Shown: positions 25,721 to 54,897, counted from the stretch's first letter. The stretch is 64,000 nt of DNA from Gammaproteobacteria bacterium (GCA_024225395.1 JAAEMR010000020.1:327-64326), one strand, 5' to 3'. A program made the numbers and translations. The notes: a model not told the origin generated them from the sequence alone.

Positions 25721-25814
25721 ATTGCACAATAGTTATCCATCCTTGGAAAATGGATATAAATTTTACTCATCTGAGAAATATAAAACATGTCAATTCAATG
25801 GATTTAGAATAGCA

Positions 25815-27095: not shown

Positions 27096-28735
27096 TGTCG
27101 AATAAAGCTGGCCTGCTCGAACTTGAAACAGAAGTCCTGATCATTGGTGGCGGAGTAACGGGTACCGGTGTCATGCGTGACCTGGCTTTGCGTGGAATAT
27201 CCTGCCTGTTGATTGACCGTAAAGATTTAAATGCCGGTGCATCCGGTGGCAATCATGGCCTGCTACACAGCGGAGGACGATACGCGACTTCTGATTGCGA
27301 AACAGCCGCCGAGTGTCGCATAGAAGGTGAAATTTTGAAGAGCATTGCTGCAGATGCTGTTGACCCCTGTGGCGGAATCTTTGCCGCAGTAGAGGGTGAC
27401 GACCCCGACTTCGCAGAAAAATTCCCACAACATTGCGAACGAGCTGGTATCTCCTGTACCGAGTTAACTAACACTGAAGCAAGACAGCTGGAACCCGCAC
27501 TAAGTGACAGGGTTTTTGCTGCGTTTCAGGTACCCGATGCCAGCATTGACCCCTTTCGTCTTACACTGGCTAATGTGCAACATGCTAAACAAATAAACGA
27601 TAGTGATTATTTGCCCCACACGCAGGTAATCAGTTTCGAGATCACAGACGGCGAAATTACCAGTGCTATCTGCCAGGATCATCGAAGTGGATCAATTTTA
27701 AAAATTCGTGCCAGACAGTTTGTTAACGCTACGGGCGCCTGGGCCAAAATGGTCGCAGAACTGGCAGATTGTCATGATGTCAACCTGCTGTACTCAAAAG
27801 GCAGCTTAATTATTAGTAATACGCGCATCACACAGGGTGTGGTTAACCGTCTGCGACCTCCTGGTGATGGAGACATTGTGGTTCCCGGCGGAACCGTTTC
27901 TCTGCTTGGCACCACATCCGACAGCATAGATAATCTGGATAAAATTCGTCCCTCCGTTGCTGAAGTCGATCGAATACTCAAACAGGGCACAGCGCTTATT
28001 CCCGGCCTTGAAACAACCCGGTTCATTCGTGCTTTCGCAGGTGTCAGACCCTTGTTAATGTCATCCGGTGCAGCACAGGACGGGCGCAGGGCGAGTCGGG
28101 GTTTTACTCTTTACGACCATCAACAACAGGGGCTGTCTAACTTTGCCACCATCGCAGGAGGAAAGCTGACCACCTATCGCCTGATGGCTGAAAAAACCGG
28201 CGATTTAGTTGCTAAACGACTGAACAATAGCAATCCATGCCGGACAGCTGAATTAACCTTGCCGACCGATGAAGGCGTTCGCTGGACCGAACCGGGTTAC
28301 TCCGCACGACACTGGTTTAAACACAGCAATGCCAGCGATTTAATTCTGTGTGAATGCGAAATGGTTCCACAGTCAGCGGTCGATAAAGTCATCAAACTGG
28401 CTCCCGGAGCAGAAGATGAAATGACTGTTCAGGCCATAGGTTTACGCAGCCGCATTGGAAAAGGAACCTGCCAGGGTGCTTTTTGCAGCATGCGCGTGAC
28501 ATCACATCTTTATGATCAACATATCTATAATAATCGCGATGGTCTCAGGCATATGCGTGATTTTGTCGGGGGACGTTTCAAGGGCATTAAACCCATTTTA
28601 TGGGGCGAACAAATGCCACAATTTGAATTAGCCGAAACCATGCATTGCGGTTTAATGGGGCTGGATTTTTTTGAACCGGAACTTCCGAAAAGTGACGACC
28701 AGGTGAAATCAGAAAATTCGGAGTCCAGCTCATGA
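27095..28735 (+). CDS. glpA: Anaerobic glycerol-3-phosphate dehydrogenase subunit A
   Basis: 546 aa. VLIIGGGVTGTGVMRDLALRG FAD fold and a C-terminal BFD-like Cys cluster (CECE...GTCQGAFC). ATG overlaps the glpC stop. Confidence 0.9.
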   Translation: MSNKAGLLELETEVLIIGGGVTGTGVMRDLALRGISCLLIDRKDLNAGASGGNHGLLHSGGRYATSDCETAAECRIEGEILKSIAADAVDPCGGIFAAVEGDDPDFAEKFPQHCERAGISCTELTNTEARQLEPALSDRVFAAFQVPDASIDPFRLTLANVQHAKQINDSDYLPHTQVISFEITDGEITSAICQDHRSGSILKIRARQFVNATGAWAKMVAELADCHDVNLLYSKGSLIISNTRITQGVVNRLRPPGDGDIVVPGGTVSLLGTTSDSIDNLDKIRPSVAEVDRILKQGTALIPGLETTRFIRAFAGVRPLLMSSGAAQDGRRASRGFTLYDHQQQGLSNFATIAGGKLTTYRLMAEKTGDLVAKRLNNSNPCRTAELTLPTDEGVRWTEPGYSARHWFKHSNASDLILCECEMVPQSAVDKVIKLAPGAEDEMTVQAIGLRSRIGKGTCQGAFCSMRVTSHLYDQHIYNNRDGLRHMRDFVGGRFKGIKPILWGEQMPQFELAETMHCGLMGLDFFEPELPKSDDQVKSENSESSS

Positions 28736-29997
28736 TCAAAAAAACACGACAATATAAATCCGAGCTGGCAGTTGTCGGGGCAGGCATTGCCGGTTGTGCG
28801 GTCACTGTCTTCGCCCAGGCTCGAGGTATCCAGACTACTCAAATTGGTAATAGCGGTGCTCTCGCCTATACCTCCGGTTATTTTGATTTACTCGGCGCCG
28901 ATAGCTCTGAATACCTCAAAGATCCATGGGCAGGATTAGCGCAACTACGGGAGAGCGAACCCGATCATCCCTATAGCAAATTAACCGACCAGGATCTGCG
29001 CGACTCACTTGATGAGTTTATTACTGCCCTGAAAAAAATGGGACTCAGTTACAGTTCACCTGGAGAAAAAAACCACCTGGCCATGTTACCGGCAGGTGCC
29101 TGTAAACCGACTTTTTGCCTGCCTGAGACCATGTTTAAAGGAACACTGGCCATGACATCCAGAGCTAAGGTTCTGATCATTGACTTTGTTGGTTTGCAGG
29201 GATTTAGTGCACAGGAGATTGTGGCAAATTTAAAATCACAGTGGCCCCAATTACGAGCTGAACGCATGATATTTCCGGAGATGGAGTCCGGCGCACAGAT
29301 TTTTCCCGAAGTCATGGCCCGGGCACTTGAAGTTCCAGCGACTCGTGAAGAGTTTGCCAGACGATTAAAGGATATTGTTGAAGACGCAGAGTACATTGCT
29401 ATGCCCGCGATGCTTGGCATTCATCGACCTGACTTTATCCACAGTGAAATGGAAAAACTGCTGGGCTTGCCGATATTTGAAATTCCGACCATTCCACCGG
29501 CTGTAGCAGGCATTCGCCTGCGTGAACTATTTGAACAAAAATTACCAGCCCTCGGGGCAACTGTCATCTCTCAACATAAAGTTCAACGCATAGAATTTGA
29601 AAATAAGTCCATTCGATTATACCTGCAGGACAGCTATGGCCCTGTAGAAATTGAAGCCGAAAAACTTGTTCTAGCCAGTGGCAGATTCCTGTCAGGAGGC
29701 TTGACCGCCGATCAGCAGGAAGTAAAAGAACCCCTGATAGATTTACCTGTTCAACAACCGGATGGTCGCGAAAACTGGTTTTGTGAATCCTACTTCGATT
29801 CGGCAGGACATGCTGTTAATCGATCAGGTATTGTGGTTAATGAAAAATTTCAACCGCTTGATTTTAAGGGTCGTGTAATTGATAAACGACTCTACGCTGC
29901 TGGAATTTTATTAGCCAATCAGGACTGGATTCGTCAACGTTGCGGGGCAGGGCTTGCCATCGCTACGGCTTATAAAGCCGTAAAAAGTTTGTCATAA
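28732..29997 (+). CDS. glpB: Anaerobic glycerol-3-phosphate dehydrogenase subunit B
   Basis: 421 aa. LAVVGAGIAGCAV dinucleotide motif. Overlaps the glpA stop by 4 nt. Confidence 0.8.
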   Translation: MIKKTRQYKSELAVVGAGIAGCAVTVFAQARGIQTTQIGNSGALAYTSGYFDLLGADSSEYLKDPWAGLAQLRESEPDHPYSKLTDQDLRDSLDEFITALKKMGLSYSSPGEKNHLAMLPAGACKPTFCLPETMFKGTLAMTSRAKVLIIDFVGLQGFSAQEIVANLKSQWPQLRAERMIFPEMESGAQIFPEVMARALEVPATREEFARRLKDIVEDAEYIAMPAMLGIHRPDFIHSEMEKLLGLPIFEIPTIPPAVAGIRLRELFEQKLPALGATVISQHKVQRIEFENKSIRLYLQDSYGPVEIEAEKLVLASGRFLSGGLTADQQEVKEPLIDLPVQQPDGRENWFCESYFDSAGHAVNRSGIVVNEKFQPLDFKGRVIDKRLYAAGILLANQDWIRQRCGAGLAIATAYKAVKSLS

Positions 29998-32383: not shown

Positions 32384-34021
32384 CTAAAAGGGCGTTTTAG
32401 CTGAAAACTCCATCTTTTCACCCGTTTGCGGGTGTTCAAAGCCGATTTTTTCTGCATGCAGGAATAACCTTTCCGAACGCGAGCCATACAACTCATCTCC
32501 AACAATCGGAGCATCCAGCCCCTGATGATGAGCAGCATGCACCCTTAACTGGTGTGTTCGTCCTGTTAGCGGATAAAAGTAAACACGGCTCGTTCCGGCT
32601 TCAACTGAAATTACTTTTACCCGGGTCACCGCATTCTTTCCATATTCATAACAGACAACCTGCCTTGGGCGATCATCCAGATCTACTCGTAGAGGTAAAT
32701 TCACCCTTTTATCCTGTTTCTCCAGTTTTCCTGATAACAACGCTACATATCGTTTTTTTACACTGCGATTAATAAACTGATGCTGTAAATGTTTATAAAC
32801 CTGCGCATTTTTAGCCGCAAGCAATAACCCCGATGTAGCCATATCCAGACGATGAACCAGTAATGCACCTGATGCCTGAGGATAACGCTGCTGTAACCAG
32901 CTCAAAACAGAATATTGCTGTTGTTTGCCTGGGATTGACAACATGCCAGCGGGTTTATTCAACACCACCAGACTTGCATCTTCATAGATTATTTCCGGCT
33001 CTAACGCCTGAACCAGATCATCCACAGCCACTCTTTCCTGACACACTCCCTGCAACATGAAAGGCAATACAGGATGACACTTTCCCCGGCAGGGAGGGTA
33101 AAAATGAGCATGATGGCGAACTCCTTTTGCAGGGCTTGAGCCCCACCAGAATTCTGCCATTGCCAGTATTTTCAGTTTATTTAAATGTGCAAACTGAATC
33201 AGTTTTGGAGCGGCACAATCTCCGCTTCCTCCGGGTGGTATCTTTCCGCCAAAAAAAGAGAGCAAAGACTTCTGCTCAGCGGATTCATTGACTAATAAAT
33301 AATTTTCAAAAACTTTTTTATGCAATTCCTGTGATAGTGCTTTTCGTTTATCAATGAGCTTATTTATCTCATCTTCAAAGTCACTTTCAAATTTAACCGC
33401 CGCCTTTTGCAGAGTATTCGCCCAGCTCAATTTAGATTGTTTAAATGCACGTTTATCCTGCTGACTAAGAAAAGATAATTCCGCTAAATATTTATTTGTA
33501 TGCTGATCATTTTTCAGTAAAGACCGTTTTAACCGGCGCTGTTGTTTATTTACCTTGTTGAGCTTTATTAGTCGCTCTACATCCATTTCCTGATGCCGCT
33601 TGAGTTGTGAAAGTTTTTCAATCGCCTGTAAACGTTCCGCTGCATTTGATAAAAATTCAATTTTTGTAGTTAAACGGGTTACCTCAATTTCACCTGCATC
33701 TAAAAATAGCTGCTGTCGCTTAACATTGAATACAGGGGGAACAAAACCGGGTACTATCCATTGCTTATTTAGCATGCCTGAAAAACTGGATAAATAACCG
33801 ATCCTGCCATCGTTATCTTCAACCACTAACACACCAAACATTTTTCCATTGTGCCGGTCGAATAAATGAGTCGATAAGAAGGGGTTATCAGTCAACTGCT
33901 GTTGTAATTCTTTGCCTGCTTTAATAGCCAGCGGGTGAGGATCATTGTCAAACGGGTTGCGGCATGACCGTGGAATCTCCGAAGGCAGGGGTTGTTCGAA
34001 GAAGTATTGAATAGTGCTCAC
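32384..34021 (-). CDS. RluA-family pseudouridine synthase with a 330-aa N-terminal extension
   Basis: 545 aa. The C-terminal half has HRLDMATSGLLLAAKN and THQLRVH. The N-terminal half has GKMFGVLVV, a long coiled-coil insert, and a Cys/His cluster GDCAAPK...HHAHFYPPCRGKC. Confidence 0.85.
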   Translation of the reverse strand: MSTIQYFFEQPLPSEIPRSCRNPFDNDPHPLAIKAGKELQQQLTDNPFLSTHLFDRHNGKMFGVLVVEDNDGRIGYLSSFSGMLNKQWIVPGFVPPVFNVKRQQLFLDAGEIEVTRLTTKIEFLSNAAERLQAIEKLSQLKRHQEMDVERLIKLNKVNKQQRRLKRSLLKNDQHTNKYLAELSFLSQQDKRAFKQSKLSWANTLQKAAVKFESDFEDEINKLIDKRKALSQELHKKVFENYLLVNESAEQKSLLSFFGGKIPPGGSGDCAAPKLIQFAHLNKLKILAMAEFWWGSSPAKGVRHHAHFYPPCRGKCHPVLPFMLQGVCQERVAVDDLVQALEPEIIYEDASLVVLNKPAGMLSIPGKQQQYSVLSWLQQRYPQASGALLVHRLDMATSGLLLAAKNAQVYKHLQHQFINRSVKKRYVALLSGKLEKQDKRVNLPLRVDLDDRPRQVVCYEYGKNAVTRVKVISVEAGTSRVYFYPLTGRTHQLRVHAAHHQGLDAPIVGDELYGSRSERLFLHAEKIGFEHPQTGEKMEFSAKTPF

Positions 34022-34173
34022 TTAAAAGTCTGGAGGTACTTTACAGGGTAATCAGTAAGCAGACATTCTATCATCATACAACCGCAAACAGGTTGATTTA
34101 TAAGCATAAATCTTATTAAACTAAATTTAAATTTTCATGTCGAAACATTATTGTATTTCACTGTGACAGCACC

Positions 34174-34734
34174 ATGACTCGTCTATTTATTTCTCTAGCC
34201 ATCAGCTTTCTTATTTCCGGCTGCCAGACGTTGAGTGAACCCGTTGACTTTAGCCATCCCAAAAGCAAACCTCCTGTAGGTACAATAGTACAGCTAAATG
34301 AAAAATTAACATTTCAAACGGGCACGAGTCGATCCTATATTCAGCACGGAAAGTCCAAAGAATTTAAAGGCATAGAAGATCGCGAACCCTGGTGCATGTT
34401 TTATAGGTACGAACCCCGAGCAGCCTTAAAAAGTGAACGTTCAGTTGAGCCTGATAATTTCACAGTTACCAGCTCATTACAGCGCGCAGAAATGGTTTCA
34501 GCTAAACCATTTTTTATTTCAACATTTAATATGATTCTTCCTGCGATGCTCGAAAGCGATAACAGCAACTCTGCAACTTTAACCACTACCATGAAAATAA
34601 AGTCTGACAAGCAACCTGAAGTTGTAGAATTAAGATGCGGGGTATTTAATGAGTCCTTTTCTGAAAATTATGTTTCTGTAAATAAAATTTTAGAAACACT
34701 GGGAAATATTGTAACCTTAAAATTTCCACAATAA
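34174..34734 (+). CDS. Lipoprotein of unknown function
   Basis: 186 aa. Lipobox FLISGCQ after a hydrophobic leader. Confidence 0.6.
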   Translation: MTRLFISLAISFLISGCQTLSEPVDFSHPKSKPPVGTIVQLNEKLTFQTGTSRSYIQHGKSKEFKGIEDREPWCMFYRYEPRAALKSERSVEPDNFTVTSSLQRAEMVSAKPFFISTFNMILPAMLESDNSNSATLTTTMKIKSDKQPEVVELRCGVFNESFSENYVSVNKILETLGNIVTLKFPQ

Positions 34735-34914
34735 ATATTGCTCTATATAGCATTTAGAGCACAAAGATAGGCATGAAAAGTACACTTGTCTTTGCGTATC
34801 CTAATACATATTGGTGCTCACTCAACAATACTATTCGCCCTTTTTTTTAAAAGTGACTTTCAAACACTGTTTAATCGTATAATACGTTTCTTAATTCCTT
34901 TAACTGTCGTATAC

Positions 34915-36192
34915 ATGAGCGTTTCGCCATCACCTTTTACAGATCAGCCATTCTTTTTATTGCTCTGTCCGTCAATTAAACTATTCCTTACAGAACAGGC
35001 AAAGTTGTTACGCTTTTCTGTTCAGGATTGTCGACAAAGCTGTGAAATTGCTCTGGATTTGCAAATGTGGGGAAATGACTCCATTGAAGATATCTGGCCA
35101 GATATGAGCCAGCTGAATGTGTCCGGCAAAGCTCGGAAACAGCAGGTCATGAACCAACTGAAATCAACCTGGGAAAACCTTAAATCCGAACAAAATTACT
35201 ACCCGGATAATAGCTCTGCACCCAAAATAAGTGCAGCAGCCATTCCGCAGGCAATACAGAAAGAATCTCTGGGGTTAGGTCGCTGCCCTGTCGCTTCACC
35301 TAGAACATTATGTTGCAACCTGCAAACGCTGGATGCCGTCGATAACTGTGGTTATGGCTGCAGTTACTGCAGCATTCAATCTTTTTTTGATGGCAAACAA
35401 ATCAACTTTGACAAAGGTTTTGCTGACAAGCTCAAAAATCTCAAGCTTGATCCAGATAAAATCTACCACATTGGAACAGGTCAATCTTCTGATTCACTGA
35501 TGTGGGGAAATAGTCATGGTGTGCTGGATGCCGTGATTGATTTTGCCCACGCCAATCCAAATGTCATTCTTGAACTGAAAACCAAGTCGGCTAATGTCAG
35601 TCATCTGGTTCGCTCCGATACACCCAAAAATATTCTTTGCACCTGGTCACTCAGCACACCCACACTGATTCGCCATGAAGAACATGGTACGGCTTCTCTT
35701 GAGAAGCGTCTGGCAGCTGCCCGACAGGTTGCCGATGCGGGGTTTATTGTAGGCTTTCATTTTCACCCAATCATTCATTATGATCACTGGTCAGAAGATT
35801 ACCAGGCCGTGGTAAAACAGCTTACCTCTCAGTTTGGAACCAGCGAAGTTGCCTTAATCTCACTGGGCACATTAACTTATATAAAGTCAGTCATGCGTGA
35901 AATACGCAAAAAGGCAATTCCCAGCCAGATACTGAAAATGCCCCTGGTCGATGCCGATGGCAAGTTGTCTTATCCCGATGATATTAAACTGTCGATGTTT
36001 AAAACGGTGTACAACAGTTTTCCTGAAAGCTGGAAAGAGCAGGTTTTTTATTATCTGTGCATGGAAAACCAACGTTTCTGGAAACCTGTTTTTGGTTATG
36101 AACATGTTTCAAACGATGAATTTGAGATGGTAATGAAGAGTTCATACCTGGCAAAAATCAATTCAGCCATTAAACAAAGCCGGGGAAACTGA
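34915..36192 (+). CDS. Radical SAM enzyme (CxxxCxxC), possibly of the spore-photoproduct-lyase / DNA-photolyase-like group; start uncertain
   Basis: NCGYGCSYCSIQSFF cluster motif, an upstream CCNLQTLD, and IGTGQSSDSL and LELKTKSANV segments. The track start 34786 precedes a TGACTT-18 nt-TATAAT promoter-like pair at 34854-34883, so ATG 34915 (or 35065) is preferred. Confidence 0.65.
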   Translation: MSVSPSPFTDQPFFLLLCPSIKLFLTEQAKLLRFSVQDCRQSCEIALDLQMWGNDSIEDIWPDMSQLNVSGKARKQQVMNQLKSTWENLKSEQNYYPDNSSAPKISAAAIPQAIQKESLGLGRCPVASPRTLCCNLQTLDAVDNCGYGCSYCSIQSFFDGKQINFDKGFADKLKNLKLDPDKIYHIGTGQSSDSLMWGNSHGVLDAVIDFAHANPNVILELKTKSANVSHLVRSDTPKNILCTWSLSTPTLIRHEEHGTASLEKRLAAARQVADAGFIVGFHFHPIIHYDHWSEDYQAVVKQLTSQFGTSEVALISLGTLTYIKSVMREIRKKAIPSQILKMPLVDADGKLSYPDDIKLSMFKTVYNSFPESWKEQVFYYLCMENQRFWKPVFGYEHVSNDEFEMVMKSSYLAKINSAIKQSRGN

Positions 36193-36242
36193 TCAATGTT
36201 ATTTGAGTTTCACTTGAACCGTTTTATATTGCTAAACATCTT

Positions 36243-37091
36243 ATGAACGATAAAACGACATTTATCAAGGCTTTACGCCCCTTTTCGTTAATTGTTGCCA
36301 TTGCCACCTGTGGCCTGGGCGTCAGTCTCGCTCTGGTGGAAAATTCACAGAATACCTTATTGGCCAGCCTGGTGATTTTTACCGGTGTACTGTTGCAGAT
36401 CGCAGTAAACCTGATAAATGATCACCGGGATCTTACCAGTCATCAATTTACACATGCTCAACAGTTAGCCATTAAACGAAATACCCGAATTGGCTGGACA
36501 GTCATGTTGCTAGCCATCGCCATCGGTTTCTATATGGTCAGCATCAGGGGATGGCCACTATTATTGCTTGGCATGTTCGGAGTTTTTGGTGCCTGGGGTT
36601 ATACCGGCGGTCAGATCAATTATAAAGAGCGTGGTCTCGGCATATTATTTGTCTTTTTGTTCATGGGTGTTCTGCTTATCGGTGGCTCTTATTATGTTGT
36701 GTCCGGAGACTATCACTGGAATATTTTCTGGCTATCACTGCCTTTTAGCCTGCTGTCATCACTGTTATTACTCAGTAATGAACTGCGGGATTATGAAGAT
36801 GACCTGGCGGCCGGCATTAAAACCCTGTGTGTTCGACAGGGATATAAACTGGGCGTCAAGCTGTATTACTGGATCGTCGCTCTGGTTTACCTGGTGAGCG
36901 TATTGTTGTATCAGGCTGAAATTTTACCCGGCCTGATTTTACTGCTGGTCACCATCGTGGTGCTGTGGCAGCCATTTAAACTGCTAAATGCCCCAAAAAA
37001 ACAACGTATTTACCTAACCCCTTTAACAGGACGATTCTATTTTATATATAGTGCCGCCTACCTTGCCACCATCTGGATACCTCAATTATGA
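36243..37091 (+). CDS. UbiA-superfamily prenyltransferase, MenA-like (1,4-dihydroxy-2-naphthoate prenyltransferase type)
   Basis: 282 aa with about 8 transmembrane helices. LLQIAVNLINDHRD parallels MenA LLQILSNLANDYGD. The second Asp-rich motif is NELRDYEDDLAAGIKTLCVRQG. Confidence 0.75.
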   Translation: MNDKTTFIKALRPFSLIVAIATCGLGVSLALVENSQNTLLASLVIFTGVLLQIAVNLINDHRDLTSHQFTHAQQLAIKRNTRIGWTVMLLAIAIGFYMVSIRGWPLLLLGMFGVFGAWGYTGGQINYKERGLGILFVFLFMGVLLIGGSYYVVSGDYHWNIFWLSLPFSLLSSLLLLSNELRDYEDDLAAGIKTLCVRQGYKLGVKLYYWIVALVYLVSVLLYQAEILPGLILLLVTIVVLWQPFKLLNAPKKQRIYLTPLTGRFYFIYSAAYLATIWIPQL

Positions 37092-37957
37092 ATCAGGACC
37101 TGGTTCTCGCTATCGCCCTGCCGGTTACTCTTTTTTTCATCATGTTCAGTATGGGCGCAAGCCTGACGCTGGCTAATTTTAAAACGGTCATACAAACCCC
37201 CGGAACTGTTATAACCGGACTGGTATCTCAAATGCTATTGCTACCAATATTGGCTTTTTTTTTGCTTTACCCGTTCAATTTACCCGCAGAAATATTTGCC
37301 GGTTTCATTATTCTTGCGCTAAGCCCGGGCGGCACAACTTCTAATATGTTTTCTTACCTGGCAGGTGGAAACCTGGCTTTATCCATTTCTTTAACCGCTA
37401 TAGTCAGTATTTTAACGCCATTTACCATCCCGTTAATTGCCGGTTGGATACTGGTTTCACAGCTTGATGCAGCAACTGCCATCAAGCTGCCTTTCCTGTT
37501 AACCGTGGTTAAACTATCCGTGGTAACCCTGGTTCCTGTTGTACTTGGCATGTTGTTACGCCACTTTAAAACAGCATTGTGTAACCAGCATGAATTTTGG
37601 ATGACACGAATTCCATTAATCATGTTATTGCTGGTCATCGCCGGTATCATCCACCAAAACTGGACAATGATGCCTTTCTTTATCGATCAGACAGGTTTTC
37701 CCGCTTTATTGCTGGCCACACTAGCGATTGCTGTTGGATATATTTTTGCGCGCAGCATGAAACAAAACAAAGCTGACTCCAGAACCATTGCCATCGAAAC
37801 CTCTATACAGAATGGTGGCACAGCTATTCTGGTCACCGGAACCATCTTACAAAATTCTGCCATGACCATTGCCCCGGTCATGTACGGCATTTTAATGCTT
37901 ATTCCTGTTTTCATTTACCTGTTCTGGGTTAATCGTTCTAAACAGGTACTCGCATAA
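37088..37957 (+). CDS. Bile acid:sodium symporter (BASS) family transporter
   Basis: 289 aa, polytopic. ALSPGGTTSNMFSYLAGGNLALSIS signature. ATGA overlap with the preceding gene. Confidence 0.8.
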   Translation: MNQDLVLAIALPVTLFFIMFSMGASLTLANFKTVIQTPGTVITGLVSQMLLLPILAFFLLYPFNLPAEIFAGFIILALSPGGTTSNMFSYLAGGNLALSISLTAIVSILTPFTIPLIAGWILVSQLDAATAIKLPFLLTVVKLSVVTLVPVVLGMLLRHFKTALCNQHEFWMTRIPLIMLLLVIAGIIHQNWTMMPFFIDQTGFPALLLATLAIAVGYIFARSMKQNKADSRTIAIETSIQNGGTAILVTGTILQNSAMTIAPVMYGILMLIPVFIYLFWVNRSKQVLA

Positions 37958-38683
37958 ATGACTCATCGGTTATCAAAAACTTTCGGTAAAAGCAGAGTCA
38001 CCACCGAACAACGTGAAGAACTTGTTCGCGGCATCTTTAATCGCGTGGCTGGACGCTACGACCTGATGAATGACTTGATGAGCATGGGCATTCATCGAGT
38101 ATGGAAACATCGTTTTTGCAAAGAGGTGAACAAGACACCAGGACATGTGTTTGTTGATCTGGCAGGAGGTACTGGTGATATCGCCAGCGCTATGATTAAT
38201 GACCAGAGAGAAGTGATCATTATCGACCCTTCCGTCGAGATGATGAGGGTTGCTGAAAAACACCTGGGTCAAACATGTCGTTATTTAGCGGCTTCGGCTG
38301 AAGACATTCCATTACCGGATAACAGCGTTGATGTACTGACTATATCCTTCGGTATTAGAAATGCCACAGATATTTCAAAATCTCTACAGGAGATAGCTCG
38401 TGTGCTTAAACCCGGCGGTCATTTTTATTGCCTTGAGTTCAGTACCCCTTATGCATGGCTTGCTCCTTTTTACAATGCCTGGTCACGCATTGTCATTCCA
38501 CGTCTTGGCGCATTAGTCGCAGGGCATCCGGATGCCTATACTTACCTGATTGAATCTATTCGTGAATTCCCGGCTCAACAGGAAATGGCTGAAATGATCT
38601 CATCGGCCGGCTTGATCAGCGTTTCCTACAGTAACCTTTCTTTTGGAATAGCCTGTATTCACCGGGGAGTAAAAGCACAATAG
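37958..38683 (+). CDS. Second UbiE/MenG-family quinone C-methyltransferase
   Basis: 241 aa. [42 protein letters not shown]. Starts the base after the BASS stop codon. Confidence 0.85.
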   Translation: MTHRLSKTFGKSRVTTEQREELVRGIFNRVAGRYDLMNDLMSMGIHRVWKHRFCKEVNKTPGHVFVDLAGGTGDIASAMINDQREVIIIDPSVEMMRVAEKHLGQTCRYLAASAEDIPLPDNSVDVLTISFGIRNATDISKSLQEIARVLKPGGHFYCLEFSTPYAWLAPFYNAWSRIVIPRLGALVAGHPDAYTYLIESIREFPAQQEMAEMISSAGLISVSYSNLSFGIACIHRGVKAQ

Positions 38684-38791
38684 CGTTCAAATTGTGAACC
38701 AGGCAACGCAACTTGTGTAACTTAGTCACATAACTTTTTACAATCCTCTATTATACTTTGCTTATATAGTAATTTTTACTGGAGATTAGAA

Positions 38792-39031
38792 GTGATTAAA
38801 TCAGCCTGTTTTCTAATGAAGAAAGCCGCGGCTTCATCTGTATTCCTGATTGTTGCGGGAACCCTGTTGGTATTAATATCCCAGTTTATAAACCTGACTA
38901 CGGTTGTCCCTGCCATATTTTCATACGTTGGATTTATTTTAATTGTTGCCGGTTTACTGATTATGCTTATAACGACGGTGGCTATTTTACTGCCCAGGAT
39001 CAGCAGACAGCTGGAGCAGTGTCAGCACTAA
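38792..39031 (+). CDS. Small two-helix membrane protein ending RQLEQCQH
   Basis: 79 aa. GGAG lies 8 nt before the GTG start. Has a diverged inverted paralog 50 bp downstream. Confidence 0.5.
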   Translation: MIKSACFLMKKAAASSVFLIVAGTLLVLISQFINLTTVVPAIFSYVGFILIVAGLLIMLITTVAILLPRISRQLEQCQH

Positions 39032-39081
39032 ACTTAAGACCTAACAATTGTCGGCCTGTTGCTCTGCTGAACACTCCAGAT

Positions 39082-39300
39082 CTAGTGCTCACATCGATCC
39101 ATTTTCTGTTTAGATTTTAGTAACACCGATATCAGGAATGTAGATAGCAGTATAGTGGGGGACGGCAATAACAAAATGAACCCGAAAAACATCACGATAT
39201 GCGGTAAATTTCATATTTGAGGCAATATATGCATAGCGACCATGATAAGCATAACGCCTGCGATAAAAAAGATTAGCGAGGCAACAACGCCTTCGCGCAT
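39082..39300 (-). pseudogene. Inverted paralog of the 38792-39031 small membrane protein, interrupted by an in-frame TGA (39211-39213)
   Basis: Manual translation MREGVVASLIFFIAGVMLIMVAMHILPQI*NLPHIVMFFGFILLLPSPTILLSTFLISVLLKSKQKMDRCEH. It aligns with the plus-strand copy (FIAG/IVAG, QI*NL/QFINL, GFIL, C-terminal RCEH/QCQH). Confidence 0.5.
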
Positions 39301-39342
39301 AGTTTGACAACCCAAAGTTAATAACATGTTGTTTTCATTATA

Positions 39343-39990
39343 TTAATCATTTTCAGCCATCATTTTTTTAGCAGTTCCCTTTTCCAGTCCAAACTCACTT
39401 TCAATCATTGCATTCCATGCCGCTCTTTTGAACGTTCGTTCATGAGGTACTCTCCGGTGAACCAGATTGTAATGACAATCAATACAACTTTTATGTTTCG
39501 CATCTTCCAGATGAATTTTATTAGTATCTGGCCGGGTACCATAAATGGCTTCTTTAACATGACATTTTTTACAGGTCGCCGAATCTCTCTTTTTAAACCA
39601 GCTTCTGGCAGCAAAGGCGGCTTCCGGTAAATGCAATGCACTCACAACTGGATCATCATAATCCGGGCCAATTAATGCGCCTTTCAGCTGATTGATAACA
39701 TCTTTACCCCCAATAAAATGATCCCAGGTCGCCGATAATACGCCTTCAGATACATGACAGTCTCCACAACTGGCTCGAACCCCGGAATCCGGCTTATAGT
39801 GTTTGGACTGCCGATAAGGGTCTGCCACAATTTCCATCGAATGACAGCTGGTACAAAAATCTTCACTGCTGGTGTAATGATCAAATTCTATCAAAAAAAG
39901 TATAAAACCCATGCCAGAAATTCCACCCACCAGTAAAGCAAATAAAACATGACGGGTTATGAAAGCTGGTAGCTGGAGCCTAATCTTCAT
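39343..39990 (-). CDS. NapC/NirT-family membrane-anchored tetraheme cytochrome c (quinol dehydrogenase)
   Basis: N-terminal transmembrane helix then 4 CxxCH motifs (CTSCH, CGDCH, CKKCH, CIDCH). ATG 39990 follows AAGGGA and overlaps the upstream stop. Confidence 0.85.
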   Translation of the reverse strand: MKIRLQLPAFITRHVLFALLVGGISGMGFILFLIEFDHYTSSEDFCTSCHSMEIVADPYRQSKHYKPDSGVRASCGDCHVSEGVLSATWDHFIGGKDVINQLKGALIGPDYDDPVVSALHLPEAAFAARSWFKKRDSATCKKCHVKEAIYGTRPDTNKIHLEDAKHKSCIDCHYNLVHRRVPHERTFKRAAWNAMIESEFGLEKGTAKKMMAEND

Positions 39991-41434
39991 GAGATATCCC
40001 TTGTCCAAAACCTGGAACAGGGTTCCCTTTTTCCGGATGGTTCAACCAGTCATGATGCTCAGAATCATTGATATACTTTTTTATCAGGGCATCACCTTTT
40101 TGCTTTCCGGCAACGCCCCTGATTTGCTTTAGAAATTTACCATAAAAATTGCTACCAACCTCACTCATGCCCTTCCAGGTCATACTGGGACTACCCATCG
40201 CGGCGCCATGCCTGGCCATTGTTCCACTGGTATGCCATAAATTCCAGTAAGTGACTTCAATCGGCTCATCGAAAGGTAAAGGCGTTAATAAGTCATCAGA
40301 GTAAAGCTGCTGCATAATGGCCTGAGCAGGTTTACCATATTTCTCATTAAACAGTTCAACCACGTTATCAAACTGTAACATCGCATTATTACTGAACCCT
40401 TTACTATGACATTCCAGACAAACTTTTGTCATGGCACCACGACGGCGTTTGGGCGATGCCACTGCTTTCACTTTACCCATGCTACCATCCATTTTAGAAA
40501 TACTTTCACCGCGCCGGGGTATAGGTTCAGAGGTTGAAAGTTCTCTCTTGCTTCCATCAGCAAAAATAACAAGATATTGCTGCTTTGAAACTGCCTCATT
40601 CAAATTCCATGAGTCACGCATACCCACATCATGCGTAGACTTCATTTTACCTGCTGCCCCCATGTGACAGGTGACACAGGTGGGAGCCGCCGAGTAATCC
40701 TTTCCAACGACCCACTGATCACTGTCCATATTCATATCTTTTTTATGCGCTTCATACATTATGCCGTGCCTGGAGCTTTCATATATTGATTTATCAGGAG
40801 AATCAGGTCCTGAGTGACAGTAGATGCATGCCTGTGGCTCACGTGCCTGAGCCTTGGAAAATTGATGCCTGCCGTGACAGGAGGAACAGGAACCAACTGA
40901 ACCATCCGGGTTAATACGTCCGATGCCGGAATTGGGCCAACTGGCTGGATCCAGTGTGCCATCACCACGTACCTTAACTTCCGAACCATGACATTTCGCA
41001 CAACCTGCATCATTAATGGATGGACTTCCAAAATGTTCGGAAAGAGCAGGCATCCGGTTCTTAATAATTGTAAGTGCCCTGGTATGAACCGAACCCTTTT
41101 GTTGCTTAAATTCTTGCGTATGGCAACGACCACAATCTTTCGGTGATACGATCGTCGCTATTATGCTACCTTCATGTTCGATTGCATCGACATCTTCTTC
41201 ATAAGCCTGATGACAATCCAGGCAGTTCACATTGGCCACAGCATGAGCACTGTTTTTCCACTGGTGAGTGAGCCCCGCCGAAGATTTACTATGACAGTCG
41301 ACACAGGCCTTACCTTCATCACTTCCCCAGCTACTGGAATCAACCGTGACTTTTGCAGCTAAGACAGAAGTAGATGACAACAATGTTATCAATAGAATCA
41401 GAACTGAAAATGAGGTCTGTAGGTAAGGCTTCAC
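39980..41434 (-). CDS. Octaheme cytochrome c of the hydroxylamine oxidoreductase (HAO) family
   Basis: Signal peptide and 8 CxxCH motifs (CVDCH, CLDCH, CGRCH, CAKCH, CSSCH, CIYCH, CVTCH, CLECH). HAO-family block WPNSGIGRINPDGSVGSCSSCHGRHQFS...AREPQACIYCHSGPDSP...YESSRHG. The start may be 41452. Confidence 0.8.
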   Translation of the reverse strand: MKPYLQTSFSVLILLITLLSSTSVLAAKVTVDSSSWGSDEGKACVDCHSKSSAGLTHQWKNSAHAVANVNCLDCHQAYEEDVDAIEHEGSIIATIVSPKDCGRCHTQEFKQQKGSVHTRALTIIKNRMPALSEHFGSPSINDAGCAKCHGSEVKVRGDGTLDPASWPNSGIGRINPDGSVGSCSSCHGRHQFSKAQAREPQACIYCHSGPDSPDKSIYESSRHGIMYEAHKKDMNMDSDQWVVGKDYSAAPTCVTCHMGAAGKMKSTHDVGMRDSWNLNEAVSKQQYLVIFADGSKRELSTSEPIPRRGESISKMDGSMGKVKAVASPKRRRGAMTKVCLECHSKGFSNNAMLQFDNVVELFNEKYGKPAQAIMQQLYSDDLLTPLPFDEPIEVTYWNLWHTSGTMARHGAAMGSPSMTWKGMSEVGSNFYGKFLKQIRGVAGKQKGDALIKKYINDSEHHDWLNHPEKGNPVPGFGQGISHED

Positions 41435-41509
41435 GTTATAGTAACTCCACACATTATTTTATTAACTTAGCCCCGTGAAGGGGCGTAATTCAAAGGTTAT
41501 ATTCTGTAA

Positions 41510-42092
41510 TTATTCTTTTTCGTAACCGACTATCATCGCCTTCAGGTAACCGATAAACACTTCACTGGTCGTTAAGCCATGTAGAGATGTACAATTAAAA
41601 ATGCGATTAACATGAAAGCCAGCACTGTATGCATTAACGCAACGAACATCAGACTTAGTCCTCCAGGCCCAACCATTGCCCAGTAAGGGTAAAAAAATAG
41701 AGCAAACCACTGAGTACCGCAAAAGGTAACATAAGGGTATGTAGCGACAGGTAAGCCATACGCTGTACAGGATTCAATTTTGACTGCCTGGTTTTATGAT
41801 GAGGGTATTCACTACCAGCGGTAAAAATATCCACGCCATAATATTTCATCATAGCCAGCAATTTATTCATATTTGCCGGTATATATTGTTTCCACTCACC
41901 CGTAACCATGTTGCAGAAAATACCCAGAAACCCGATAGCAATCAAACACCAGGAAGCGACTATATAAATATCCACTGCCTGCTCATACCCGAACAAACTA
42001 TAAGTCCCATGAATCTCAAATCCCGTTATCAACATGGCAATAACCAGAAAGCCCTGAGACCAGTGCCAGTTCCGATATGACAACGGGTACAA
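41510..42092 (-). pseudogene. Cytochrome b (Ni/Fe-hydrogenase / formate dehydrogenase gamma-type b subunit family) broken by two frameshifts in its 3' part
   Basis: Frame 1: YRNWHWSQGFLVIAMLITG...LTGQWLGLED*. Frame 2: GLSLMFVALMHTVLAFMLIAFLIVHLYMA*. Frame 3: TTSEVFIGYLKAMIVGYEKE*. Joined together they reconstruct a typical family member. Confidence 0.65.
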
Positions 42093-42357
42093 CGTGATAA
42101 GTTACCAGTGATACTCAGGCAAAAATTGTTCACAACAGTTTTCTTACCTACCAGTTCACCATTGTCGGGATTAGTAAATTGCCGGTTCCGGTGTTTTTTT
42201 AAGCTCATCAAACTTACTGTGATCAGCCGTTGAGGTAGAATTTTTTAACCGGTGTGTTTTTCTGAGAAGCCAAACTACTACTGGAAAAACCAACCAGACA
42301 GCTACCCAGCAATAAAAACAAAGCGGGGCGAACTAAACTTCCATAGCGGGAAAACAT
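42029..42357 (-). pseudogene. Remnant of a multiheme cytochrome c gene (resembles the N-terminus of tetrathionate-reductase-family octahemes), frameshifted and truncated
   Basis: A strong RBS GGGAGGG precedes ATG 42357, giving signal peptide MFSRYGSLVRPALFLLLGSCLVGFSSSSLA and a stop after 44 codons. The next frame reads ADHSKFDELKK. A third frame reads FTNPDNGELVGKKTVVNNFCLSITGNLSRCTRCH. Frame changes coincide with A6/A7 runs. The ORF then runs into the cytochrome b start. Confidence 0.5.
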
Positions 42358-42441
42358 ACGTTTCCCTCCCTAAAAACAAATGCTTTTAATTTCCGGAACA
42401 AAGCGGGTGTTAAACAACCTCAGCTTTGCCCCGGTACTCTA

Positions 42442-43722
42442 TTACAACGAGTTTTCAGCCGATGCAATCATCTTTGGAGCAGTTACATCTTTAGGGATTT
42501 TAGTGAACTTTTTAACCAGTCCAGGCCATAAAAGGTTGTAGTAAAGTTCGGCACGAACCAGTACAACGTCTTTGGCTGGGATAGAGTATTCAAAGTTACG
42601 TGTCTCAAAAGCTTTCAGTCGAGTATCAGAACCCTGACCTTTAGCCGTTGGAGGACCCGTTGGCTTTCCATCTGCATCAACCAGTGTTAAGAACATAAAT
42701 GCTTTTTTGTCTTGCTTGGCAGGGTGTCCTTTTGCATTTTCCCAAACCATCTTGCCGTCCTTGTCATAAGCCGTAATTTTTATATATAGATTTCTGAACG
42801 GTGCACCAGTAGGCATGGTGTGCGGTTGTTTATTTCTGAGAGTAATAGTCGAGTTAATATTATCCCCATTCTTTTTACTATCCATATAAAAAACTACTGC
42901 ACGTTGCAACATACCCATATCATGTCCACCACCCATACTGTGGTCGGCAAAACCTTTACCCATAGGCATGTGGCATGACAGACAGTCTACTTGCGCATTA
43001 CTCGCTATGTATTCGTCACCCGTTGCACATAAAGGCACTCCATGAGCATTGTTACGCTTATCATGGCAACCCATGCAGGCATCGGATGTTCTTAAGTGAG
43101 AAGGATTACTTTCCATTGGTAGAGACTGAATTGTCTTGCCATCAACCTCAACCGCTTCACCCATATGAGGGTTCGGTTTCTTGTCTTCTTCACCACCAAA
43201 ACCAAAATCATCACCACTAGCAGCCAGTGATGCCAGTTTATTGTTAGAGTGACGACCAGAGCCCTGTAATTTAGTAGATGTTTCATAGGCCTTCAGCCCT
43301 AATTTACCTTTGGTTGCATCAACACCTACAAGTTTTTTCATAGTATGACAGGCAACACAGTTAACACCTTCAGAGTAGGCAGGGGCAGAATCCAGTTTAG
43401 TCTTTTTATCTCTCGCTGCATTAGGTGCATGACACTGCAAACAAACAGGGTATTTACCTGATTTTGTTTTTACGCCTTCCTTTCCTGGATCACCGACAAC
43501 TTTTCTATAGAAAGTACCGTGAATGGGATCTTTGAATGCCGTACTGTTTGCATGCATTGAACCTTTCCATTGTTTATAAATATCTTTATGGCAAGTTTTA
43601 CAGGTTTCGGACGAAACCTGGTGAATCGGTTTATCAGCTGAAACATTTGTAGCTGAAAGCAAACTTAAACCACAAAATACCATTCCTGAAAATAGCAAAG
43701 AAATTTTTACCCTGGTGCGCAT
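42442..43722 (-). CDS. Periplasmic pentaheme cytochrome c with a heme-free C-terminal domain
   Basis: 426 aa with a signal peptide and 5 CxxCH motifs (CKTCH, CLQCH, CVACH, CMGCH, CLSCH). The last 150 aa or so lack heme motifs. GAGGAAGGG Shine-Dalgarno. Confidence 0.8.
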   Translation of the reverse strand: MRTRVKISLLFSGMVFCGLSLLSATNVSADKPIHQVSSETCKTCHKDIYKQWKGSMHANSTAFKDPIHGTFYRKVVGDPGKEGVKTKSGKYPVCLQCHAPNAARDKKTKLDSAPAYSEGVNCVACHTMKKLVGVDATKGKLGLKAYETSTKLQGSGRHSNNKLASLAASGDDFGFGGEEDKKPNPHMGEAVEVDGKTIQSLPMESNPSHLRTSDACMGCHDKRNNAHGVPLCATGDEYIASNAQVDCLSCHMPMGKGFADHSMGGGHDMGMLQRAVVFYMDSKKNGDNINSTITLRNKQPHTMPTGAPFRNLYIKITAYDKDGKMVWENAKGHPAKQDKKAFMFLTLVDADGKPTGPPTAKGQGSDTRLKAFETRNFEYSIPAKDVVLVRAELYYNLLWPGLVKKFTKIPKDVTAPKMIASAENSL

Positions 43723-44252: not shown

Positions 44253-45689
44253 TTAATGAATTATTTCAGACAATTCCTTAACCAGCGCATCAGGCGTAAT
44301 TCCATGGGCAAATTTTGTAATAAAACTACCATCCGGTGCCATCAGGTAAAGACTGGCAGTATGGTCCATAACATATAAGCCCGGATCAGACTCGTCTCTC
44401 CTGCCTTTTTCGAACTGCACCTTGAATTGATCAGCAACCCGTTTAATCATCGCCTCAGAACCCGTAAGGCCAATCAGACGCGGATCAAAATAACTCACAT
44501 AGTCTCGTAATAACGTAACCGTATCCCTCTCAGGATCAATTGAAATGAAATAAGGCTGAATATCATCGGCCATATCCCCCATCTGCCTGAAAGCCTGGGT
44601 CAATACAGACAAGCTGGTCGGGCACACATCCGGACAAGAGGTGTAACCGAAAAATAATATCGCATACTTGCCCATCATATCCTGTTCAGTAACGGTTGCT
44701 CCGAGATGGTCAGTCAGGAAAAAATGCCCGCCCAAACCATCGATAACAGGACTTTCATCACCAAAAGCCTCGAGTCGTGCTTTGGCTGCTTCATCCATGT
44801 CAGCATTCAAACAACGCTTTATCACATCCGTATTGTATTCCATCAGCTTCAGGTACAACTCCGGGCCAGGCTCTAAATCCAGCCCTAACGTATCCAGTTT
44901 GCCGATGTTTATTGTTTGCCCTTCTGTTAAAAGCTGCTCGTTCCCAGCTGGCATACTCTTATCTACAAACAGACAAACCGCTTGCTGGCTGGCAATTCTT
45001 GTCCGCACATTGAGCAAGTCCAGGACATTTTCCTTATCCCACGGTGAAGCAGAAACATGATCCAGTGTTTTCAATGCATAGGCCTGCTCAAAATAATTCA
45101 AATTGTCATAATACAAAACCCCTAGACCCGCTTTTAAACCTCGATATCCGTACTCATATTCTTTATCTATGCGCCGCAATGGCACTAACATATCCAATCG
45201 GTTACGGGTGTAAATATGTGAACGCTGGGGATCAAGCCGAACCAAAATCTCTGTTAACTCATCCAGCATAATCATTACATTTCGATCATCCATCCAGAAG
45301 AATGGATCCCGAGCATCTGGATTTTTTCGTGATGGAAGTATCTTTAAATCAGGACTGGATAACAATTCAACAACCTTGACACTATCAGGTAACTTTTCAA
45401 TAGTTTGCTGCAGGGATTTTTCAAGTTCAGGACCTACCCAGATCAGCAGTTTTGCATCATTTAACTGATTTTTCTGCTGCTGATTTAACTCAAAATTATA
45501 GGGCGTTTCTTTGTTATCGATTAATAAAACCGGTTTACCGACACCCTTCATTAAACCAGCAACAATTGAATGAACCGGTTTAATACTGGTTACAACTGTA
45601 AAATTATCGGACGCCCAGCTCACTGACATATTCAACATCAATACAGTAATCGTAACACGGTAAAAGCCGTGTATTATTTTCTCTATCAT
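44253..45689 (-). CDS. Fusion protein: ZnuA/TroA-like periplasmic binding-protein domain (canonical His ligands absent) plus C-terminal Sco1/SenC copper chaperone
   Basis: 478 aa. The N-terminal TSIKPVHSIVAGL...LLIWVGPELE scaffold has TPYNF, DPFFWMD and YYDNLNYF where ZnuA has His. The C-terminal part has FFGYTSCPDVCP (CxxxC) and DHTASLYL (His ligand). Confidence 0.75.
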   Translation of the reverse strand: MIEKIIHGFYRVTITVLMLNMSVSWASDNFTVVTSIKPVHSIVAGLMKGVGKPVLLIDNKETPYNFELNQQQKNQLNDAKLLIWVGPELEKSLQQTIEKLPDSVKVVELLSSPDLKILPSRKNPDARDPFFWMDDRNVMIMLDELTEILVRLDPQRSHIYTRNRLDMLVPLRRIDKEYEYGYRGLKAGLGVLYYDNLNYFEQAYALKTLDHVSASPWDKENVLDLLNVRTRIASQQAVCLFVDKSMPAGNEQLLTEGQTINIGKLDTLGLDLEPGPELYLKLMEYNTDVIKRCLNADMDEAAKARLEAFGDESPVIDGLGGHFFLTDHLGATVTEQDMMGKYAILFFGYTSCPDVCPTSLSVLTQAFRQMGDMADDIQPYFISIDPERDTVTLLRDYVSYFDPRLIGLTGSEAMIKRVADQFKVQFEKGRRDESDPGLYVMDHTASLYLMAPDGSFITKFAHGITPDALVKELSEIIH

Positions 45690-47575: not shown

Positions 47576-48067
47576 TTACTGGTTATTACTGGTAATAAAA
47601 CGAAATGGTACATTTATCTGTTTATCACCAGCATCCAGTTGAATAACGGATTCCCACTCCATAATGCTTCGAGTACAAAAAGATAAAGCCCCTTTGCCCA
47701 TATAACGTCCATTTCCTGTTTCATTTAAATCGACAATATTGGGAGGCATCTTCATATCAACTCCATTGATATCAACTGACACATCATCGATATCAAGACC
47801 TGAAACGGTCACTTCAAGTTTTAGCTTTTCACTGACTGGAATAGATCGCGGCTCAATGGCAAAACTTACACGGCTACCATCGTCTAAAGTCGTGATGCAG
47901 GGTCCTGCACGTAAATCACAACCAGGGTCAAATGCGACTCTGACTTGCTCGGGGGGAATATTGTCTACCCACCATTGCTGATAAACCAGCCAGCTTATTA
48001 CTAAAAATGACAGTGTTATTCCTGCTATCCAGTTGGATTTACTAATCCCTTCAAAGGTTTTTTTCAT
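47576..48067 (-). CDS. Single-pass membrane-anchored periplasmic protein, FixH-sized; family not confidently recognised
   Basis: 163 aa with an N-terminal transmembrane helix WIAGITLSFLVISWLVY. Beta-rich remainder with CDLRAGPC. Starts 23 bp downstream of nosY. Confidence 0.5.
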   Translation of the reverse strand: MKKTFEGISKSNWIAGITLSFLVISWLVYQQWWVDNIPPEQVRVAFDPGCDLRAGPCITTLDDGSRVSFAIEPRSIPVSEKLKLEVTVSGLDIDDVSVDINGVDMKMPPNIVDLNETGNGRYMGKGALSFCTRSIMEWESVIQLDAGDKQINVPFRFITSNNQ

Positions 48068-48090
48068 AACTATGAATTAATTCAACCGGG

Positions 48091-50289: not shown

Positions 50290-50293
50290 GATT

Positions 50294-51265: not shown

Positions 51266-51270
51266 TTCAC

Positions 51271-52158: not shown

Positions 52159-52164
52159 TTGTGA

Positions 52165-53412: not shown

Positions 53413-53445
53413 GCGTTATTTTTTAAGTTCAAAGCATTTTTATCG

Positions 53446-53573: not shown

Positions 53574-53585
53574 TGGTTATTTTTA

Positions 53586-54773: not shown

Positions 54774-54866
54774 TGAATTTGGCCTTAAGAATGATGTGGT
54801 TTTGTATAGCCCAAAAATGAAAAAGGCTGGACTGACAAAAGCTAGCCCAACCTAATCTGAAATAGA

Positions 54867-54891: not shown

Positions 54892-54897
54892 TATTAA

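Follow-up and report, generated by a model that had tools for sequence, protein, structure and literature searches.

A UbiA/MenA-like prenyltransferase and BASS carrier gene pair recurring beside clade II nos clusters of Gammaproteobacteria: a candidate module for quinone precursor salvage

Results

Layout and conservation of the prenyltransferase-carrier pair

The DNA analysed here, a stretch of 64,000 nucleotides from a Gammaproteobacteria bacterium (GCA_024225395.1, JAAEMR010000020.1:327-64326; hereafter the window), contains three consecutive genes encoding a UbiA/MenA-like prenyltransferase, a carrier of the bile acid/sodium symporter (BASS) family and a second, divergent UbiE/MenG-type C-methyltransferase, designated UbiE2 (Table 1). 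An original prediction, made without database searches, had described these genes as translationally coupled and as a candidate module for salvage of a naphthoquinone precursor. Both junctions read as claimed: that between the prenyltransferase and carrier genes is caattATGAatc, where the ATG at 37088 overlaps the TGA ending at 37091 (ATGA), and that between the carrier and UbiE2 genes is gcaTAAATGact, where the stop codon ending at 37957 is followed by the ATG at 37958. Pfam and NCBIfam agree with the three family assignments that had been made, and the motifs that had been quoted (LLQIAVNLINDHRD, NELRDYEDDLAAGIKTLCVRQG, YDLMNDLMSMGIHRVWK and DLAGGTGD) were all located in the translations. 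A scan of positions 34000-39500 for promoters and terminators returned sites no more numerous than in shuffled sequence.

Related loci, numbered L001 onwards, were collected with flanks of up to 10 kb per side. Among 49 genome loci encoding a UbiA-like protein at least 52% identical to that of the window, the carrier gene lies directly downstream on the same strand in 47; of the two exceptions, one ends at a contig end and the other, from a Sedimenticola metagenome-assembled genome (L052), is without a carrier. Counting from the carrier side, we considered those metagenome contigs on which the carrier is at least 38% identical and the relevant flank extends for 0.6 kb or more, and the UbiA-like gene was beside the carrier in all 54 of these; 13 full-length carriers without a UbiA-like gene sit less than 600 bp from a contig end, and L131 and L149 are ambiguous. 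The pair occurs in two gene orders that correspond to two clades, prenyltransferase before carrier (carriers at least 55% identical to that of the window) and carrier before prenyltransferase (38-45%), and carriers of 37% identity or less never had a prenyltransferase neighbour in the metagenome scan. The recurrence of the same gene order in dozens of independent genomes and metagenome contigs is beyond chance. Of the 49 genome loci, 17 have UbiE2 after the carrier. Since the prenyltransferase and carrier are near-universal together and UbiE2 is a frequent addition, the pair is the conserved core; the conservation of a triplet, which had been put forward as a check, thus holds for the first two genes, whereas the third is not a constant member. 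A cultured bearer of the pair is Chromatocurvus halotolerans DSM 23344 (L046; assembly SLWX01), and the pair is also present in assemblies JABHSO01 (SI039_bin4), PNQY01 (Ca. Thioglobus perditus), MARB01 (Ca. Thiodiazotropha endolucinida), JAUCGL01 (Ca. Halobeggiatoa HSG11) and CALOEK01 (on a contig of 2.36 Mb).

Association with clade II nos clusters

The window also carries a nos cluster (47576-58578), which encodes a Sec-type NosZ, NosD and the NapH/NapG-like NosH and NosG and is therefore of clade II (Sec-type). The respiratory block to which it belongs, comprising the nos genes, a gene for a ZnuA-SCO1 fusion protein, multihaem cytochrome genes and a NapC/NirT-octahaem cytochrome pair, is convergent with the module. 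In other loci the two are joined on a single strand: the order nosZ...nosY-(ZnuA/SCO1 or porin)-UbiA-BASS-UbiE2 was found in L012, L016, L021-L023 and L041, and a portion of it, nosH/nosL...nosY-ZnuA/SCO1-UbiA-BASS, in the metagenome contigs L098, L099 and L118. The clade with reversed gene order is likewise found beside nos genes (L072, L132, L134, L136, L141 and L147). The connection with NosGH-type respiration of nitrous oxide (N2O) that had been proposed for the window is thus backed by synteny with clade II nos clusters elsewhere. Orthologues of the ZnuA-SCO1 protein (60-63% identity), which is probably a CuA-assembly factor for NosZ, are encoded immediately upstream of the prenyltransferase in L021-L023, L041, L098, L099 and L118, and in loci of the Thioglobus type the fusion gene lies between nosY and the UbiA-like gene. 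Clade II clusters of the Wolinella succinogenes type share with the gammaproteobacterial ones a Sec-type NosZ, NosB-like protein, NosD, NosG, NosH, NosF, NosL and NosY, whereas the latter add the ZnuA-SCO1 fusion and UbiA-BASS(-UbiE2) at their 3' end. The window NosZ is not of the cytochrome-fused type (cNosZ), because its C-terminal extension contains no CXXCH, and neither a cNosZ nor a Campylobacterota origin can be claimed for it.

To one side of the pair in Ca. Thiodiazotropha lie genes for a NirJ-like protein, NirS and a porin; to the other side lie those for a NosD paralogue, a cytochrome c peroxidase and a NapC-fusion protein. The NosD paralogue, which is 37-42% identical to the window NosD and scores 323 against a cutoff of 300 on TIGR04247, has no adjoining NosF or NosY and follows the carrier or UbiE2 in L012, L016, L026, L030, L031, L033, L035-L037, L042, L044 and L100.

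The prenyltransferase

Membership of the UbiA superfamily is clear for the prenyltransferase (PF01040, 91.5 bits against a Pfam cutoff of 34.2). Its best NCBIfam matches are all to MenA models, each with a score below the cutoff, the highest being NF004751, a model for 1,4-dihydroxy-2-naphthoate (DHNA) polyprenyltransferase (139.6 bits, cutoff 264), followed by TIGR00751 (74.8, cutoff 102.15) with the remaining MenA models lower still. As it falls below all MenA thresholds, the protein is MenA-like and not an established MenA; the assignment of the first gene as MenA-type, and the profile classification that was suggested for it, therefore stand as regards family, motifs and best-matching models but not as regards the curated thresholds. 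Alignment with Escherichia coli MenA (31% identity) matches both Asp-rich motifs, NLINDHRD and NELRDYEDDLAAGIKTL of the window protein with NLANDYGD and NNLRDINSDRENGKNTL of MenA, and residues N56, N59, D60, D63, N179, R182, D183 and D187 are invariant or nearly so among 14 homologues. The sole sequence match in the PDB was UBIAD1 (8djk, E 2e-16). An AlphaFold2 model (pLDDT 71.7) is all-helical, and a Foldseek search with it placed UBIAD1 at the top, with DGGGP synthase and archaeal UbiA also among the top matches. The protein thus has in common with MenA and UBIAD1 the superfamily fold and the motifs N-x-x-N-D-x-x-D and N-x-x-R-D-x-x-x-D-x-x-x-G-x-x-T-L, and differs from them in its low identity to E. 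coli MenA, its sub-cutoff scores and its pairing with a BASS carrier; unlike MenA, proteins of its type are found in ubiquinone-type Gammaproteobacteria beside nos genes and not beside men genes.

A profile search of 1.8 billion representative sequences showed the prenyltransferase merging as a continuum into the wider MenA family, with no isolated clade. In the part that was inspected of a neighbour-joining tree of 229 sequences, the BASS-linked proteins were grouped, far from E. coli MenA. Homologues of 63-95% identity come from uncultured Gammaproteobacteria, those named being Ca. Marithrix, Ca. Halobeggiatoa, Ca. Thiomargarita and Ca. Thiodiazotropha, and when one genome per species was scanned, 188 relatives turned up, all the named ones being gammaproteobacterial. 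More distant homologues (L054-L083, 41-48% identity) occur in Oceanospirillaceae and relatives, cultured heterotrophs such as Neptuniibacter, Oceanospirillum, Nitrincola and Pontibacterium, which presumably contain ubiquinone-8 (Q-8). There the gene is without a carrier and lies between genes for a YegQ-like U32 peptidase and a class I fumarase, a placement that we treat as lineage synteny and not as a functional clue.

The carrier

The carrier contains the SBF domain (PF01758, 107 bits against a Pfam cutoff of 24.3), and its PDB matches are bacterial BASS/ASBT transporters (28sv, E 1e-33) and NTCP. Across 11 homologues there is little or no variation in the motifs SPGGxTSN and IE(T/V/I)xxQNxG, with S79-P-G-G-x-T-S-N86, E237, Q241 and N242 invariant; these residues may correspond to the Na+ sites of ASBT. 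The SBF domain, SPGGxTSN and E-x-x-x-Q-N are thus shared with the BASS/SLC10 carriers (ASBT homologues, PanS and plant BASS), from which the window carrier is set apart by scores below the cutoffs of TIGR00841 (164.4 against 326) and the PanS model (99.4 against 400), and by belonging to a subfamily defined by its adjacency to a prenyltransferase.

Other lineages add outer-membrane proteins to the pair. An OmpL-like BBP2 porin (PF07642) is encoded directly upstream of the prenyltransferase in 18 loci, and a barrel of a different family, Phenol_MetA_deg (PF13557), lies 2 bp upstream in Ca. Halobeggiatoa (L011:9061-9999). A 625-aa relative of the prenyltransferase, P0261, on a 4.8-kb JGI contig, bears a C-terminal periplasmic substrate-binding domain of the NMT1 type; the fusion could be real or an artefact of gene calling and, if real, would be a further tie between this enzyme family and solute capture. 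Two unrelated outer-membrane barrels and the NMT1 fusion lend indirect support to a role of the carrier in uptake.

UbiE2 and the canonical ubi operon

UbiE2 matches PF01209 (Ubie_methyltran) over positions 3-233 of the 233 in the profile (242.9 bits), has the S-adenosylmethionine (SAM) motif DLAGGTGD, and passes the thresholds of TIGR01934 (254.1, cutoff 158; a subfamily threshold) and, by 0.8 bit, of NF001244 (216.8, cutoff 216). In these respects it resembles other UbiE/MenG methyltransferases. It differs from them in being a second copy that adjoins MenA-like genes and that falls short of the canonical gammaproteobacterial UbiE model NF001240 (213.7, cutoff 378), on which the other copy in the window, 39% identical to it, scores 412. 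That copy belongs to the canonical ubiE-ubiJ-ubiB operon that the original prediction had placed at 8127-11684; the placement proved correct, with UbiE and UbiB above their cutoffs and UbiJ identified by best match only. On gene content, this operon indicates that the organism makes ubiquinone. It follows hslV-hslU (5613-8879 for hslV to ubiE), the position at which E. coli K-12 (L085) has menA; no canonical menA was found at this position in the window.

Orthologues of UbiE2 (71-76% identity) also occur as the last gene in a second type of cassette, after a gene for a rubrerythrin/ferritin-like di-iron protein (187 aa) and, next to it, a distinct MenA-like gene whose product is about 26% identical to the window prenyltransferase. 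The copy of this cassette in L170 points away from a clade II nosZ cluster, and a third MenA-like gene comes after it. Because UbiE2 orthologues elsewhere invariably adjoin other MenA-like genes, UbiE2 is a consistent partner of MenA-like prenyltransferases, and the second cassette may be another nos-linked quinone route, one with a hydroxylation step. Substitutes for UbiE2 may exist. In Ca. T. taylori a DUF938 methyltransferase gene takes its place after the carrier, and in C. halotolerans a membrane protein (L046:8873-9874) is encoded 79 bp upstream of the pair, with weak, sub-threshold resemblance (E 0.002-0.02) to PEMT, ICMT and NnrU-type proteins, very weak grounds on which it could be an alternative methyltransferase.

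Neighbouring genes

The radical SAM gene that lies 50 bp upstream of the prenyltransferase gene on the same strand had been left as a possible member of the module, and its product might in principle make or modify the ring in a four-gene cassette. It belongs to the spore photoproduct lyase (SPL) family (PF20903, 67.2 against a cutoff of 27), with the CxxxCxxC motif present as CGYGCSYC, and scores 75 against a cutoff of 400 on the true SPL model TIGR04070; it is not of the MqnC/MqnE or class C methyltransferase type. The adjacency is retained in only 2 of the 49 genome loci, the closest relatives L006 and L039, and the gene is missing upstream of the prenyltransferase in the remaining loci with upstream flank. 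It is moreover more conserved than the module: its orthologues, some of which bear the name 'DNA photolyase' or 'spore photoproduct lyase', make up more than 120 clusters at 68-91% identity, and those at 69-77% in L166-L169 lie alone in unrelated neighbourhoods with no UbiA gene. Membership was accordingly rejected on synteny, and we consider a role of this gene in the pathway very improbable.

On the other side, L006, L087 and L088, from the closest relatives, are the only other loci in which the NapC/NirT and octahaem cytochrome genes adjoin the module. The minus-strand region 39343-43722 further contains genes for a cytochrome b (Ni_hydr_CYTB, called in L001) and another multihaem protein; the octahaem cytochrome has a core like that of hydrazine/hydroxylamine oxidoreductases, and the region resembles the octahaem nitrite-reducing systems outlined for orange Beggiatoaceae (PMC6449678). 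A 79-aa hydrophobic open reading frame (ORF) on the plus strand (38792-39031), 108 bp past UbiE2 and by appearance a two-helix membrane protein, has no family match and is also called as a gene in L001-L004. Elsewhere in the window, GlpA and GlpB are encoded with an HmcF/DsrK-like Fe-S subunit instead of a typical GlpC, and the aerobic GlpD and GlpK are present (25722-29997 and 15719-18765). The anaerobic glycerol-3-phosphate dehydrogenase of E. coli feeds the menaquinone pool; an anaerobic GlpAB fits a second quinone here and proves nothing.

Identical copies of the locus were found on metagenome contigs from JGI and on a single contig from NCBI. The latter (L005) is a 3.3-kb contig of assembly GCA_024449705.1, whose contig numbering implies a very large, fragmented assembly, and its sequence may be host-associated or a contaminant. 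The near-identical JGI contigs L003 and L004 have genes split by frameshifts (radical SAM and octahaem cytochrome in L003; UbiE2, octahaem cytochrome and glpA in L004), apparently through errors of assembly or sequencing, or else as pseudogenes at the strain level; no such splits affect the window copy.

Table 1. Coordinates of the module, of other features of the window and of features of related loci
Feature	Position	Strand	Remarks
UbiA/MenA-like prenyltransferase (MenA/UBIAD1 clade)	36243-37091	+	282 aa, membrane; first gene of the conserved pair
BASS/SBF-family carrier	37088-37957	+	289 aa; partner of the prenyltransferase
UbiE2 (second, divergent UbiE/MenG-type C-methyltransferase)	37958-38683	+	241 aa; facultative third member
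SPL-family radical SAM gene	34915-36192	+	425 aa counted from ATG; neighbour, non-member
Canonical UbiE	8127-8879	+	NF001240 412, cutoff 378
160-aa ORF inside ubi operon	8889-9371	+	No family match
UbiJ	9381-10004	+	NF047938 48.8, best match but below cutoff
UbiB	10014-11684	+	NF003404 726, cutoff 667
NapC/NirT tetrahaem quinol dehydrogenase	39343-40008	-	PF03264 116 bits
Octahaem cytochrome	39980-41452	-	PF13447 89 bits
ZnuA-SCO1/SenC fusion	44253-45689	-	Pfam ZnuA and SCO1-SenC; partial ZnuA in NCBIfam
163-aa ORF	47576-48067	-	End of nos cluster
NosY	48091-48918	-	ABC-2 permease, Pfam match
NosL	48915-49439	-	Pfam match
NosF	49432-50289	-	
NosH	50294-51280	-	TIGR02163 240.2, cutoff 213
NosG	51271-52158	-	Best match NapG, below cutoff
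NosD	52165-53412	-	TIGR04247 383.8, cutoff 300
NosB-like	53586-54773	-	
Cytochrome c	54898-55626	-	
NosZ	56173-58578	-	TIGR04246 857.8, cutoff 625
Second cassette	L170:6491-9801; L171:6553-8741; L172:6553-8753		Di-iron protein, MenA-like gene and UbiE2 orthologue
BBP2 porin	L012, L016, L024-L026, L028, L030, L031, L033, L035-L038, L042, L044, L045, L053		About 1.3 kb upstream of UbiA

Discussion

The recurrence of the pair in two gene orders and its insertion, with or without UbiE2, into clade II nos clusters lead us to conclude that the three genes are very probably linked in function to one another and to the nos loci. From their families we infer the following course of events. The BASS carrier would import a preformed anionic aromatic head group, for which the likeliest candidate is a dihydroxynaphthoate such as DHNA; the MenA/UBIAD1-clade enzyme would join a polyprenyl chain to this ring in the membrane; and UbiE2, or the housekeeping UbiE or another methyltransferase where UbiE2 is absent, would C-methylate it. 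The product would be a low-potential quinone of the menaquinone type in an otherwise ubiquinone-making organism, and would be put to use by the quinol dehydrogenases of anaerobic respiration, NosGH and NapC/NirT among them. That the module turns an imported naphthoate-type ring into a menaquinone-like quinone for anaerobic respiration is a reading that we find plausible and put forward tentatively. The cassette contains no hydroxylase or decarboxylase and so fits a ring that is already a hydroquinone, such as DHNA. As had been noted in the original prediction, no men or mqn core genes accompany it: none of these families was matched among the approximately 45 window ORFs scanned, a few of which had no match at all.

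Salvage of this kind has parallels. In group B Streptococcus, Lactiplantibacillus plantarum and Porphyromonas gingivalis, an orphan MenA reportedly converts exogenous DHNA into functional quinones, so that, as proposed here, the genome specifies the last steps alone and neighbouring organisms provide the ring. Our system differs from those in that a carrier is locked to the prenyltransferase, sometimes with an outer-membrane barrel, and in that the hosts are Gram-negative chemolithotrophs and the setting is a denitrification locus; we found no description of a dedicated transporter for the orphan-MenA systems. For a ubiquinone bacterium, a methyltransferase dedicated to menaquinone and working under micro-oxic conditions has been reported (PMC3237581).

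Several points weigh against the naphthoate salvage proposal. The prenyltransferase fails every curated MenA threshold, and its acceptor may therefore not be DHNA. The substrate of a BASS protein is not readable from its sequence, and the carrier could be an exporter. NosGH need not depend on menaquinol, as NapGH-type modules are able to use ubiquinol in E. coli, and the N2O/N2 couple needs no low-potential donor. Cultured bearers of the pair or of the wider prenyltransferase family (among them C. halotolerans and Oceanospirillaceae) reportedly have Q-8 as their quinone. In the Beggiatoaceae loci L008-L011 and L040 the pair is found with no adjoining nos or respiratory genes. Finally, the scan for men and mqn genes covered the 64-kb window as a portion of the genome.

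This last consideration is the starting point for a more ordinary explanation, namely that the module performs the last steps of an endogenous menaquinone pathway whose men or mqn genes lie elsewhere in the genome, and that the carrier has nothing to do with precursor supply. The window takes in 64 kb of the genome, many bacteria, E. coli included, have menA apart from the remaining men genes, and some sulfur-oxidizing Gammaproteobacteria of the Chromatiaceae and Ectothiorhodospiraceae contain both ubiquinone and menaquinone. The near-absolute pairing of prenyltransferase and carrier in two gene orders nevertheless argues for a shared task, outer-membrane barrels are encoded upstream in other lineages, and the enzyme is only 31% identical to the MenA of E. 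coli and below threshold on all MenA models. Nor was any men gene seen in about 160 flanking regions, as judged by annotated conserved neighbour clusters and not by exhaustive search, and a related thiotrophic symbiont has been reported to be without menaquinone (PMC8269255). We regard an endogenous pathway as unlikely.

The missed MenA equivalog thresholds also bear on a different alternative, in which the module makes another prenylated product, whether a prenylated benzoquinol or phenolic acid or a lipid-anchored cofactor for the Nos, Nir or cytochrome machinery, and the carrier supplies or removes a polar moiety. In keeping with this, UbiE2 scores 197 bits on MpqE, the model for methyl-plastoquinone methyltransferase, its orthologues are encoded in cassettes alongside other MenA-like genes and a di-iron protein that might hydroxylate a ring, and the NosD paralogue follows the pair in 11 loci. 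However, the best profile, PDB and fold matches of the prenyltransferase are all naphthoquinone prenyltransferases, the window cassette, lacking a hydroxylase or decarboxylase, fits a ready-made hydroquinone ring, and the UbiE/MenG family is known only for C-methylation of quinol rings. Such a product is in our view rather unlikely, if somewhat less so than an endogenous pathway.

The enzymology involved is known in kind; what is new is the obligate pairing with a carrier and the linkage to nos. The original prediction knew of no precedent for such a transporter-embedded arrangement, and our search of the literature likewise found nothing that connects a prenyltransferase with clade II nos clusters or with any BASS carrier; menaquinone is not discussed in the Thiomargarita genome papers. 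Taken to its full extent, the salvage of a naphthoate ring suggests a bolder possibility, which we think doubtful at present: that respiration of N2O or of other anaerobic acceptors in these abundant marine bacteria, the ubiquinone-type sulfur-oxidizing Gammaproteobacteria of oxygen-minimum zone, sediment and symbiont lineages, depends on a vitamin K ring precursor from neighbouring microbes, taken up and completed by a portable, nos-borne salvage unit of outer-membrane channel, Na+-coupled carrier, MenA-like prenyltransferase and methyltransferase, with the BASS protein as the first dedicated importer of a naphthoate of the DHNA type.

If the salvage of a naphthoate ring is borne out, the carrier would be the first protein known to transport a menaquinone head group, and the 'orphan' MenA-like genes of ubiquinone-only Gammaproteobacteria would be explained. 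Should menaquinone prove not to be the product, a pair of prenyltransferase and carrier with ties to nos and conserved in over 100 loci would still be an unannotated part of these respiratory loci. The module recurs beside nitrous oxide reductase genes in marine sulfur-oxidizing bacteria, and in oxygen-minimum zones and sulfidic sediments the biological removal of N2O, a greenhouse gas, takes place mainly through its reduction by organisms with clade II NosZ. Were a scavenged precursor to limit respiration in these organisms, N2O consumption would be coupled to cross-feeding, which would constitute a new control point.

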